Below, piece after piece: positions 1,907 through 4,678 of a stretch of DNA of 5,170 nt. The first letter of the stretch is position 1. Each line of letters opens with the position of its first letter. The notes below the pieces were generated by a model. It was not told the DNA's origin, ran no database searches, and saw only the letters and a program-made list of their open reading frames with translations. A program made the translations under genes and the position numbers. This DNA comes from a virus (taxonomy: Duplodnaviria; Heunggongvirae; Uroviricota; Caudoviricetes), in the IMG/VR virus record IMGVR_UViG_2778261151_000013. The stretch is one strand, 5' to 3'.

Positions 1907-1949
1907 AATGTGTTAAAAACGCTGTAGCAGAATGAAGCGCGGAATAAAA

Positions 1950-1977
1950 AAGCGGCAACTCAATAAAGTTGCCGCTT
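1950..1977. terminator. Bidirectional rho-independent terminator between convergent ycaK and pflA
   Basis: Perfect 11-bp inverted repeat AAGCGGCAACT / AGTTGCCGCTT around a 6-nt loop (CAATAA). An A-run on the left gives a U-tract for the pflA transcript; a shorter T-run on the right serves the ycaK transcript. Confidence 0.6.
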
Positions 1978-1987
1978 TACGGGGAAA

Positions 1988-2785
1988 TTAGAACATTACC
2001 TTATGACCGTACTGCTCAAGAATGCCTTTCACGCGTTCCATGGTCTCTTTCTTAGGTGGTTTAACACCGTCGAGTTTGTACTCTTCACCCATTGCCACCC
2101 ATTTGTGTTTGCCCAGCTCGTGGTAGGGGAGGAGTTCGATTTTCTCAACGTTGCCCATATCACGGGTAAATTCACCGAGGCGATGCGCTGAATCGTCATC
2201 GTCAGACCAGCCTGGGACAACAACGTAGCGGATCCACACCTTCACATTTTTGTTCGCCAGATATTTGGCGAACTCCAGCGTGCGGTGGTTGGAAACTCCA
2301 ACCAGATTTTGGTGGATCTCGTCGTTCATCTGTTTGAGATCGAGCATTACCAGGTCGGTTACTTCCAGCAGTTCATCAATCACCGGATCGTAACGACGAA
2401 CAAAACCGTTGGTGTCCAGACAGGTATGAATGCCTTCTTTTTTGCAGGCGCGGAACCAGTCACGAACAAACTCAGCTTGTAGGATTGCCTCACCGCCGGA
2501 TGCGGTAACGCCGCCGCCGGAAGCGTTCATAAAGTGGCGATAGGTCACCACCTCTTTCATTAAATCTTCAACGGTAACTTCTTTACCGCCATGCGTATCC
2601 CAGGTGTCGCGGTTATGACAATACAGGCAGCGCATCAGGCAGCCCTGGAAAAAGGTGATAAAGCGAATACCCGGGCCGTCTACGGTTCCACAGGATTCAA
2701 AGGAGTGAATGCGACCAATAACTGACTTGGTAGCCCCCGCCGTAGCGGTATTTTCTGTTGTATTACAATTAGTTAAATTACTCAT
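1988..2785 (-). CDS. pflA: Pyruvate formate-lyase activating enzyme (glycyl-radical enzyme activase, radical SAM)
   Basis: From residue 21 the ORF reads [42 protein letters not shown]…GHKVMF, with the CxxxCxxC radical-SAM motif; I recognise this as E. coli PflA. End coordinate is the first in-frame ATG (2783-2785), because the position expected for the normal initiator (2726-2728) reads AAG here. True start is unresolved; the conserved 246-codon body is 1988-2725. Confidence 0.9.
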
Positions 2786-2816
2786 ATCGCTTCAATTGGC
2801 TCTAGTTAACTCTGGT
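2729..2816. other. Candidate prophage-chromosome junction (attL region) between int stop and the conserved pflA body
   Basis: Integrase stop (2817-2819) and the conserved pflA sequence (from 2725 down) are separated by only about 90 bp, where a prophage-free E. coli locus has (from memory) a longer pflB-pflA intergenic region. Core not identifiable without the other prophage end. Confidence 0.4.
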
Positions 2817-3812
2817 TTATGGACGCATTATGGACATTCCTGACACCGGGTTAAGAGTCACTGCATCTTGTAAGAAATCCGGTGCAAAGTGTGCGTAGGT
2901 CATAGTTTGCTGAATGTTAGAATGACCCAGGATGCGCTGCAATGTGATTATGTTACCTCCATTCATTATAAAATGTGTGGCAAATGTATGCCTCAAAACA
3001 TGCACTGCCTGTCCGTCAGGTAAATCGGGTTTTACTTCCCTGAGAGCGTTGCGCACTTTGTAGTAACTGGCATTAAAAAGCCTGCCTGAATTTTTGGTCT
3101 TGATCCGTTTAATCAGGTCCTGCGAAACGGGAATTGTCCTGCGCTTTCCGTTTTTAGTTTTCATAAACGTAACCATCTGGTTAATGATGTGTTCAGCTTT
3201 TAAATTAGACACTTCACTCCAGCGTCCACCAGTAGAAAGGCAGACCAGAGTCGCATTTAATTCATCACCATCGAGCATGGATAACAGCCGTGTAATCTCT
3301 TCACTGGACAAAAAAGCCATTTCTGTAACAGCTTCACGTAATCGCTTAACCTCACGGAACGGGTTGTGAGAATGGTATTCACCGGCGTCAATTAACTTGG
3401 TGAACATCCCGCTCATTATTGCCAGATGCCGATTTACGCTGGCTGGTTTTAGACCATCGTTCATCATTACAACGCGATAATCAGTTATCGTTTTCTTTGT
3501 TAGCTGGTCAGCTCTGGACACTCCCATTTCTGCAAATTTGGCGATTATTGTCGTCAAACGCCCCCGTTCAATATCTCCACGCTCATGTGATTTTCCGTGA
3601 TATATCCACCATCTGCCTAACAACTCTGTAAGAGTTCGGCGGTCGGCTGGCTTCTCCAGCCACTCTTTGTTGTGGTAGTTAACCAGTACATGACGTTCGA
3701 ATGCTTGAGCTTCACCTTTAGTTTTAAATTTCCGCCTGATACGTTTTCCATCTGCACCCTGCGGTCTGACGTCCACTTCATAACGACCATCATCGAGCTT
3801 TTTAATAGACAT
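2817..3812 (-). CDS. int: Tyrosine site-specific integrase, P2 Int family
   Basis: 331-aa ORF. N-terminus MSIKKLDDGRYEVDVRPQGADGKRIRRKF closely resembles P2 Int (MAIKKLDDGRYEVD…). C-terminal catalytic signature present: GGRWSEV (Arg), HVLRHTFATHF (His/Arg box), LGHSNIQQTMTYAHF (Tyr nucleophile). ATG start with GGAGGG 5 nt upstream. Confidence 0.93.
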   Translation of the reverse strand: MSIKKLDDGRYEVDVRPQGADGKRIRRKFKTKGEAQAFERHVLVNYHNKEWLEKPADRRTLTELLGRWWIYHGKSHERGDIERGRLTTIIAKFAEMGVSRADQLTKKTITDYRVVMMNDGLKPASVNRHLAIMSGMFTKLIDAGEYHSHNPFREVKRLREAVTEMAFLSSEEITRLLSMLDGDELNATLVCLSTGGRWSEVSNLKAEHIINQMVTFMKTKNGKRRTIPVSQDLIKRIKTKNSGRLFNASYYKVRNALREVKPDLPDGQAVHVLRHTFATHFIMNGGNIITLQRILGHSNIQQTMTYAHFAPDFLQDAVTLNPVSGMSIMRP

Positions 3813-3905: not shown

Positions 3906-4217
3906 TCAGCCAGTCTTTTGGTCTGAGTGGTGCAAGGTTGTTGAGTCTTGCCCAATGTGCGCGAGCGCCGGGGCTATTTGTCCGCCAGCGGGATCAGTTT
4001 CATCAAACATGAACCAGTCACGGTACTTGCGAAATCTTTCAGGCTTGAAAAATTTCATGCCTGCGTCAAAAGACATCTTTACTTTTCCCTGCTCATATCC
4101 AGCATAGGTGTTGTAGTTAATTCCAGTTAATTCAGCAACTTGCTTCCTTGTCATTCTTTCTGACTCCCGAATAAGTGCGAGTTTCTCTGCTTGAGATGTG
4201 ATTTGTGTATTTGACAT
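3906..4217 (-). CDS. Prophage immunity repressor, P2 C-like (HTH)
   Basis: 103 aa from ATG 4215-4217: MSNTQITSQAEKLALIRESERMTRKQVAELTGINYNTYAGYEQG…GGQIAPALAHIGQDSTTLHHSDQKTG. The C-terminal tail resembles P2 C (…SGQIAPALAHFGQNETTSPHSGQKTG). The ORF track's longer version starts at an upstream TTG (4265) and is less likely. Confidence 0.85.
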   Translation of the reverse strand: MSNTQITSQAEKLALIRESERMTRKQVAELTGINYNTYAGYEQGKVKMSFDAGMKFFKPERFRKYRDWFMFDETDPAGGQIAPALAHIGQDSTTLHHSDQKTG

Positions 4218-4321: not shown

Positions 4322-4678
4322 ATGAGTATTGGATCAGAAATGAATAACGATGTTGGAGAAAAAGTATCTGATCTCACAAAAAGTAAAAAATGTGACATCA
4401 AACTTGCAGCCGCACCGTCGGATTTGCTCTCGAAAGAGGGATTTGCTCTTTACATCGGTAAGACGCCTCGTGCTGTTGCTGAAATGGCGAAAGCAGGCAA
4501 GTTACCAGCCTTTTATATGACGGACCCATTAAAGCCGGGCGGTCATGCTGAGTTATGGATTAATCGCCGTGAGTGGGACAAGTACGCAGCCCAACTAGTT
4601 GATGAAGCTCCGACAGAATGGCATGACTGGAAAAATCGCATTAGTTACAGCAAATCAAGACATGGCCGTGCGGCTTAA
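4322..4678 (+). CDS. cox: Cox-like excisionase / transcriptional regulator (P2 Cox family)
   Basis: Central region …FALYIGKTPRAVAEMAKAGKLPAFYMTDPLKPGGHAELW… aligns by eye with P2 Cox (…FAKLIGKSTGAVRRMIDKGKLPVIDMTDP…). Divergent from C as in P2. Start chosen at ATG 4322 (GAGGA 7 nt upstream); alternatives are TTG 4292 (no SD) and ATG 4340. Confidence 0.75.
   Translation: MSIGSEMNNDVGEKVSDLTKSKKCDIKLAAAPSDLLSKEGFALYIGKTPRAVAEMAKAGKLPAFYMTDPLKPGGHAELWINRREWDKYAAQLVDEAPTEWHDWKNRISYSKSRHGRAA

Follow-up and report, generated by a model that had tools for sequence, protein, structure and literature searches.

The window analysed here, a 5,170-nucleotide (nt) stretch of the Caudoviricetes record IMGVR_UViG_2778261151_000013 in IMG/VR, contains the integrase end of a P2-like prophage next to pflA, whose product activates pyruvate formate-lyase. 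Window positions 2714-2836 are the left attachment site (attL) of a Peduovirus prophage, most likely of the PhiD145 class, the arm of which probably repairs pflA. In the window, pflA starts with a phage-derived leader of 20 codons, fused in frame with native codons 2-246. The same arrangement is present in 7.5% of complete Escherichia coli genomes and in lysogens of other enterobacterial genera. The hybrid gene most likely still works, as judged from its reading frame and its intact body.

The 5' end of pflA in the window

The features of the 5' end of pflA, with the basis of each in brackets, are as follows.

1988-2785, minus strand: fused pflA open reading frame (ORF) of 265 codons (ORF list; Pfam Radical_SAM and Fer4_12)
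2726-2728, minus strand: AAG (Lys) where native pflA has its ATG, with AA of phage origin (attP accAAGTCAGTT versus native gcaATGTCAGTT)
2729-2782, minus strand: phage-encoded leader codons 2-19, rich in Thr, Asn and Ala (ORF reading)
2734-2738, minus strand: GGGGG run resembling a Shine-Dalgarno (SD) sequence, 5 nt before the AAG (anti-SD duplex -8.6 kcal/mol)
2783-2785, minus strand: substitute ATG from the phage attP arm (present in the free phage)
2786-2816, minus strand: 31-nt spacer from the int stop to the new ATG, part of the int-side attP arm (sequence reading)

The int stop TAA is at 2819-2817 on the minus strand. The AAG is followed by TCA GTT ATT GGT CGC (Ser-Val-Ile-Gly-Arg). In the window sequence, no in-frame ATG, GTG or TTG occurs between the AAG and the CX3CX2C cluster motif, and the next in-frame ATG encodes the Met inside CLMRCLYC. 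A preliminary description of the window, made from the letters and an ORF list, had given the int stop, the 31-nt gap, the ATG and the AAG at exactly these positions. It had also stated that no usable start lies between the AAG and the cluster motif, and both statements agree with a re-reading of the sequence.

The body of the protein is PflA. After residue 20, 245/245 residues are identical to K-12-type PflA, the sole change being Met1 to Lys. The radical-SAM domain (PF04055, E = 4.6e-28) contains the CX3CX2C motif, and residues 21-265 of the fused protein match PDB 3C8F. An identical 798-nt coding sequence (WP_000067979.1) is annotated by the Prokaryotic Genome Annotation Pipeline (PGAP) in the lysogen NZ_CP027587.

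The crossover core lies within the first codons of pflA

Four attachment sites were compared.

attB, empty site of a K-12-like strain (L001): ctggagaaacaccgcaAT-GTCAGTTATTGGT-cgcattcactcc
attP, free Yersinia phage vB_YpM_46, MT374857 (L004): ggcgggggctaccaA-GTCAGTTATTGGT-gacattttttga
attL, window: ggcgggggctaccaA-GTCAGTTATTGGT-cgcattcactcc
attR, lysogen NZ_CP027587 (L003), beside pflB and ogrK: ctggagaaacaccgcaAT-GTCAGTTATTGGT-gacattttttga
2714-2726, minus strand: 13-bp common core GTCAGTTATTGGT, corresponding to nt 3-15 of native pflA, where crossover takes place (att quartet)
2818-2836, minus strand: two direct arm-type integrase-binding repeats, TGTCCATA at 2836-2829 and CGTCCATA at 2825-2818 (the pair overlaps the 3' end of int, stop included)

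The core is the only block common to all four sites. The attL site consists of the left part of attP and the right part of attB; the sequence above 2726 is phage DNA and the sequence below 2714 is native pflA. The proposal that the attachment site overlaps the pflA start and that phage DNA gives the gene a substitute 5' end was thus borne out: the core falls on nt 3-15 of pflA, and the sequence upstream of it is identical to the attP of the free phage. The other prophage end, whose comparison had been suggested as a check, was located in NZ_CP027587, and its comparison with attL defines the core. The native pflB-pflA spacer, with the GGAG ribosome-binding site, and the AT of the native ATG are now at attR, about 33 kb away. 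The prophage between pflA and pflB in NZ_CP027587 is a complete P2-type one, in which int-C-cox lie opposite the late genes and ogr. The late genes, which are outside the window, encode portal, terminase, scaffold, capsid, tail and gpD proteins, and ogr is at the far end. The prophage therefore splits pflA from pflB, as had been suspected; pflB lies about 33 kb off, beyond ogr. The junction of this lysogen is 100% identical to the window over a 501-nt query.

The P2-type arm consensus is tgTGGaCa (PMC3448106). Compared with its reverse complement, the repeat at 2836-2829 has 1 mismatch (scan) and that at 2825-2818 has 2 mismatches (by eye). A second pair of arm repeats is present on the ogr side of attP (2739-2746 and 2750-2757 of L004). 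Arm-type repeats on both sides of the core are expected of a P2-like prophage. No match to the IHF consensus with at most 1 mismatch was found in attP. In the Scandinavium and Pseudescherichia phages (around 3460-3500 of L007-L009 and L012), three arm-type repeats are present instead of two (CTGTCCAAAATGTCCAGAATGTGTCCACAA); int is five codons longer in these phages and stops just 16 nt before the leader ATG.

At attR (L003, about 10650-10790), the promoter region and ribosome-binding site of native pflA now precede a stub of 8 codons, MSVIGDIF*, that faces ogrK. A GC-rich stem-loop, GCCCCTC-gact-GAGGGGC, is located between the stub and ogrK and could terminate transcription in both directions.

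Frequency of the junction in E. coli

The 501-nt junction query was compared with 5426 complete E. coli genomes, and matches were obtained in all. The empty site, searched with a query from a K-12-like strain, was intact in 5021 of the 5426. The phage-side 132 nt were present in 405/5426 genomes (7.5%), with one copy each, and were located under 'pflA | integrase' in all matches listed. By identity, the 405 comprise 388 at >=99%, 6 at 95-99% and 11 diverged copies at 80-90%. Since 5021 and 405 add up to 5426, the pflA site of complete E. coli genomes is either empty or filled by this arm family. Among the matches listed, genomes without the prophage match the junction query only from window 2729 downward. 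This alignment with prophage-free E. coli had been proposed as a check, and prophage-free genomes carrying 2727-2816 would have spoken for native host DNA; they were looked for, and none carries it.

Three of the 405 int-pflA junctions are on plasmid-labelled records, which may be mislabelled chromosome pieces. Likewise, the 73.7-kb 'plasmid' record NZ_CP148399.1 has a pflA fragment and may be a mislabelled piece of chromosome. Three GenBank 'phage' matches to pflA (ON470599.1, ON470623.1 and PV468777.1) were rejected as a second phage type: they are mis-delimited prophages that include host focA-pflB-pflA-ycaD. Such records can yield false 'phage-encoded pflA' matches.

The leader ORF in lysogens of other hosts

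The ATG 31 nt after int is, in the free phage, the start of an ORF of 27 codons that spans the core; upon integration its first 20 codons are joined in frame to pflA codon 2. Junctions from other hosts were gathered by a scan of species-representative genomes and by look-up of contigs encoding diverged integrases. Twelve junctions from nine genera were compared: E. coli (two integrase (Int) types), E. albertii, three Scandinavium species, Pseudescherichia, Citrobacter, Rahnella, Serratia, Dickeya and Pectobacterium (ECA29). Across them, Int is 74-100% identical to that of the window (78% in the second E. coli type). In 12/12 junctions int is directly upstream of pflA, and the stretch from the arm repeats to the core is free of indels.

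All 12 have an in-frame upstream ATG, lying 19 codons before the native start in 11 and 17 codons before it in Serratia. Over the 12 junctions the leader frame contains 0 stops, versus 32 and 38 in the two alternative frames; a single sequence would have an open leader frame by chance with a probability of 0.13-0.43. The pflA ORF is an intact one of 265 codons in each of the 11 junctions with the full gene, and the Citrobacter contig ends inside pflA. Codons 12-20, the variable half of the leader, are highly diverged in DNA, yet no stop occurs in any junction. The composition of the leader is uniformly small and polar. The conserved ATG and the open leader across nine genera suggest that these phages have been selected for a pflA that still works. 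Given the weak codon signature described below, selection seems to act on the ATG, the open frame and small polar residues, and not on residue identity.

Most junctions have AAG at the position of the native start; the second E. coli type has CCG there, and Rahnella and Serratia have ATG. A G-run homologous to that of the window precedes the retained ATG of the Rahnella and Serratia phages. AAG, one base from the native ATG, or CCG is kept in most phages of the class despite the SD-like G-run. An inverted repeat around the core, ACCAA...TTGGT, was considered as a reason for the AAG and rejected, as it is not kept in the Scandinavium and Pectobacterium phages.

A sister Int clade (69-71% identity; Yersinia, Hafnia and Erwinia contigs) has its prophage end upstream of pyrE (pyrE-slmA-dut). 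In 2/3 of its loci, immediate stops occur in the arm where the pflA-type leader sits. The third pyrE-type arm has a short ORF of different, hydrophobic composition without fusion to a host gene. The pyrE-type junction (L102 2996-3230, L104 3011-3190 and L105 2990-3135) reads AGTCGCCTTTTTT and resembles the tail of a terminator or attenuator.

The protein collection contains further fused variants, one of them a cluster with 6565 members that is named from Salmonella. When the 40-residue N-terminus was used as a protein query, 40 candidates were obtained, mostly fragments, among them one further fused variant (Citrobacter) and one native extended PflA. A scan of IMG/VR with an integrase alignment gave 80 near-identical copies, mostly cut at the int stop, and no new junctions.

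Predicted translation and transcription of the fused gene

Two further features of the minus strand bear on expression.

1949-1978, minus strand: terminator of native pflA; in the lysogen, no terminator-like site precedes it downstream of C and int (terminator scan)
2827-2854, minus strand: weak promoter-like match TTAACC-16-CATAAT inside the int 3' end (consensus scan)

The promoter-like match is at chance level (2 matches versus 4.3 expected) and scores below 8 of 12 in 6/12 of the other-host junctions; it was not relied on. No terminator-like site was found on the minus strand between C, int and pflA, including the 31-nt spacer. In the free phage, the first terminator of the int strand is a stem-loop (L004 2766-2789) that int and ogr share and that lies 79 nt past the core. 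As this terminator lies beyond the core, integration shifts it to attR. Since no terminator separates C and int from pflA in the lysogen, the simplest model is a joint transcript of the three genes that starts at the lysogenic promoter.

The context of the new ATG has a GC content of 32% and is nearly structure-free, with a minimum free energy of -2.7 versus -13.2 +/- 5.3 kcal/mol for random 63-mers of the locus. In an AlphaFold2 model of the fused protein, leader residues 1-18 have a predicted local distance difference test (pLDDT) score <50 and no secondary structure, and the fold begins at residue 24. The low scores fit a disordered tail, in agreement with selection on composition over residue identity. 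The solved PflA chains (3C8F/3CB8) begin at Ser2, so the fusion keeps all mature PflA residues, and PflA would probably tolerate the N-terminal extension.

Some native PflA proteins also have a long N-terminus. The Providencia type (L093 3985-4150; P0145, P0150 and P0002) has a 17-21-residue extension rich in Thr, Ser, Ala and Pro that resembles the phage leader. The gene of this type has its own GGAG site and directly follows pflB, with no integrase.

Proposed mechanism

The following sequence of events is proposed. The integrase recombines the 13-bp core that coincides with nt 3-15 of pflA, and integration carries the native pflA promoter, the ribosome-binding site and the AT of the start codon off to attR beside pflB. 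The int-side attP arm would then repair pflA by supplying an ATG and 19 open codons that run in frame through the core into codon 2. The lysogen would encode a PflA with a 20-residue, probably disordered, N-terminal extension in which Met1 has become Lys20. As the C-int terminator of the phage ends up at attR, pflA would most likely be the last gene of the lysogenic C-int operon and would most likely be translated from the new ATG. Beyond this, it is possible, although we put it forward tentatively, that the leader ORF is an evolved gene-repair device that ties the activation of PflB through PflA to the C-int transcript and to a phage start without an SD sequence.

Several observations weigh against repair of pflA by the phage arm. 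The new ATG has no SD sequence: its anti-SD duplex of -2.1 kcal/mol equals the background mean, versus -6.4 for the native site. For initiation at this ATG, ribosomes would presumably have to come from int or be recruited through the AT-rich, unstructured surroundings. The consensus scan did not reveal the lysogenic promoter Pc in the window. Codon periodicity is weak in the leader (entropies of 0.61/0.83/0.82 at the three codon positions); of the single-base codon differences, a share of 0.39 is synonymous versus 0.22 expected, a comparison made over non-independent pairs. The fixed arm length could mirror the attP architecture and not a reading frame, and the invariant TGT and GAA could be DNA sites. 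Finally, ECA29 was listed in a review as a prophage that disrupted pflA.

Alternative explanations

Integration may simply inactivate pflA, the ATG being unused or the protein too scarce, with lysogens that tolerate the loss of pyruvate formate-lyase activation. Displacement of the native promoter, SD sequence and start codon to attR agrees with this explanation, as do the SD-less ATG and the published listing of ECA29. We consider it unlikely. The 12 junctions, from nine genera, all retain an in-frame upstream ATG and an open frame, which the pyrE-targeting sister clade does not. The complete pflA bodies of lysogens are all intact 265-codon ORFs, the E. coli protein is of the K-12 type, the junction has reached 7.5% of complete E. 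coli genomes, and no terminator separates int from pflA.

Less probable still is that the ATG, its spacing and the open frame are by-products of constraints on attP-arm DNA, such as Int arm sites, sites for bending proteins or Cox, and AT-richness, without selection for the PflA fusion. The absence of indels between the arm sites and the core in any junction and the weak third-position bias are what such constraints would leave. The pyrE-type phage L102 also has ATG...AATTGT at a place similar to the leader start, and the Rahnella and Serratia phages keep the upstream ATG although an ATG is also present at the native position. DNA constraints account poorly, however, for codons 12-20, which have diverged and remain stop-free beside 32 and 38 stops in the other frames, for the immediate stops in 2/3 sister-clade arms, and for the uniformly small and polar composition of the leader; the lack of an IHF consensus in attP also counts against them.

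A point mutation from ATG to AAG or a sequencing error in native DNA, which the preliminary description had left as an option, can be dismissed even though the start codons differ by one base, because the sequence upstream of 2726 is unlike the pflB-pflA spacer and identical to the attP of the free phage, the same junction is found in 405 genomes (388 of them at >=99% identity), and, among the matches listed, similarity to empty sites stops at 2729.

Relation to described elements

The P2-like coliphages PhiD145 and PhiD160 integrate at MG1655 position 950293, and ECA29 has the same integration-site identity (Nilsson et al., 2011, PMC3448106). In the current MG1655 record, pflA occupies 950340-951080. 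If the published coordinate is in the older MG1655 numbering, in which pflA is at 949563-950303, an offset of 777 nt, 950293 is nt 11 of pflA, inside the core. The window site is most likely the PhiD145-type attB at the 5' end of pflA, a mapping that relies on the older numbering and is consistent with the current record. As 950293 falls inside the core, the integration site had already been described, and the element is of a known kind, most likely of the PhiD145 class. This class assignment is based on the attB position and on late-gene identity; the late genes of PhiD145 are 97.7% identical to those of the prophage of a lysogen with this junction. PhiD145 and PhiD160 resemble the window element in having their integration site inside the 13-bp core and a P2-type integrase with arm repeats of the tgTGGaCa type.

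ECA29 of Pectobacterium atrosepticum SCRI1043 has an Int 74% identical to that of the window, directly upstream of pflA, and the same order of ATG, 19 open codons, AAG and then SVIGRIH. It differs in the sequence of the leader (MNNSNTCFSTEKPDIAEAVK). The ECA29 locus (L098/L099 3028-3825) contains an intact 265-codon fused pflA with a phage-supplied ATG and leader, which contradicts the description of ECA29 as a pflA-disrupting prophage.

Elements specific for dusA replace the 5' end of a coding gene and may keep the protein functional (Farrugia et al., 2015, PMC4482086). The window prophage shares with these islands and prophages a tyrosine recombinase, a crossover in the 5' coding region and a new in-frame start from the element. 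The dusA elements differ in integrase family and target, and the segment that they replace is a structural beta-strand. In contrast, the window prophage adds a disordered leader and leaves mature PflA, from Ser2 onward, untouched. Phage P2 itself shares the int-C-cox switch, the position of ogr at the opposite end, an attP flanked by int and ogr, and arm repeats on both sides. P2-type integrases mostly target intergenic sites (PMC3448106). Unlike P2, the class described here integrates within the first codons of a gene and brings along an ORF that would repair it, and its Int specificity is different. HK022 at torS is a prophage that swaps the native promoter of a host gene for phage-driven transcription (PMC13492144). 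In that case up-regulation was shown experimentally; here phage-driven transcription of pflA is what the terminator map would predict.

A literature search on pflA and prophage gave no description of a replaced PflA N-terminus; the primary papers on PhiD145 were outside that search. What is added here is modest, namely evidence from several genera for a phage arm built in such a way that pflA remains translatable.

Other features of the window

Beyond int, the window contains the rest of a P2-type switch module.

2817-3812, minus strand: tyrosine integrase of P2 type, 331 aa (Pfam Int_N and Phage_integrase)
3906-4217, minus strand, as int and pflA: C repressor (immunity, helix-turn-helix) (Pfam HTH_3/HTH_31; PGAP coding sequence in the lysogen)
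4322-4678, plus strand, divergent from C: Cox (Pfam Phage_Cox, E = 1.9e-29; PGAP coding sequence)

The order and orientation int - C - divergent cox are those of P2-type phages by Pfam, and the PGAP annotation of the lysogen agrees. The window int has 98-99.7% DNA identity to the integrases of sequenced Peduovirus phages. Free phages with an int and arm of 98-99.7% identity include pro147, pro483, P24A7b and several Peduoviruses plated on Yersinia pestis. On the other side of pflA, the native neighbours ycaK and ycaN come next. No Rfam family was found in the window. In the prophage of NZ_CP027587 (L002 12102-13934), a 610-aa DUF7380 gene lies between the portal gene and the replication genes; variable cargo or defence genes are often found at this position in P2-like phages.

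Implications

Where pflA seems to begin oddly with AAG, as in about 7.5% of complete E. coli genomes, the cause is a prophage junction and neither a mutation nor faulty annotation; the RefSeq PflA of 265 aa is a hybrid of phage and host sequence. Vectors that integrate at the PhiD145 site may strip pflA of its native start unless the leader arm is included. The junction offers a simple system in which to test how a host metabolic gene may be transcribed from phage signals and translated without an SD sequence. TdcE and GrcA are also activated through PflA. If the proposed mechanism is true, a central anaerobic step would be under phage control, with a variant protein, in roughly 7% of E. coli as well as in lysogens of eight or more further enterobacterial genera. 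Phage control of PflA would then revert on excision, and ECA29 would have been wrongly described as a prophage that disrupts pflA.

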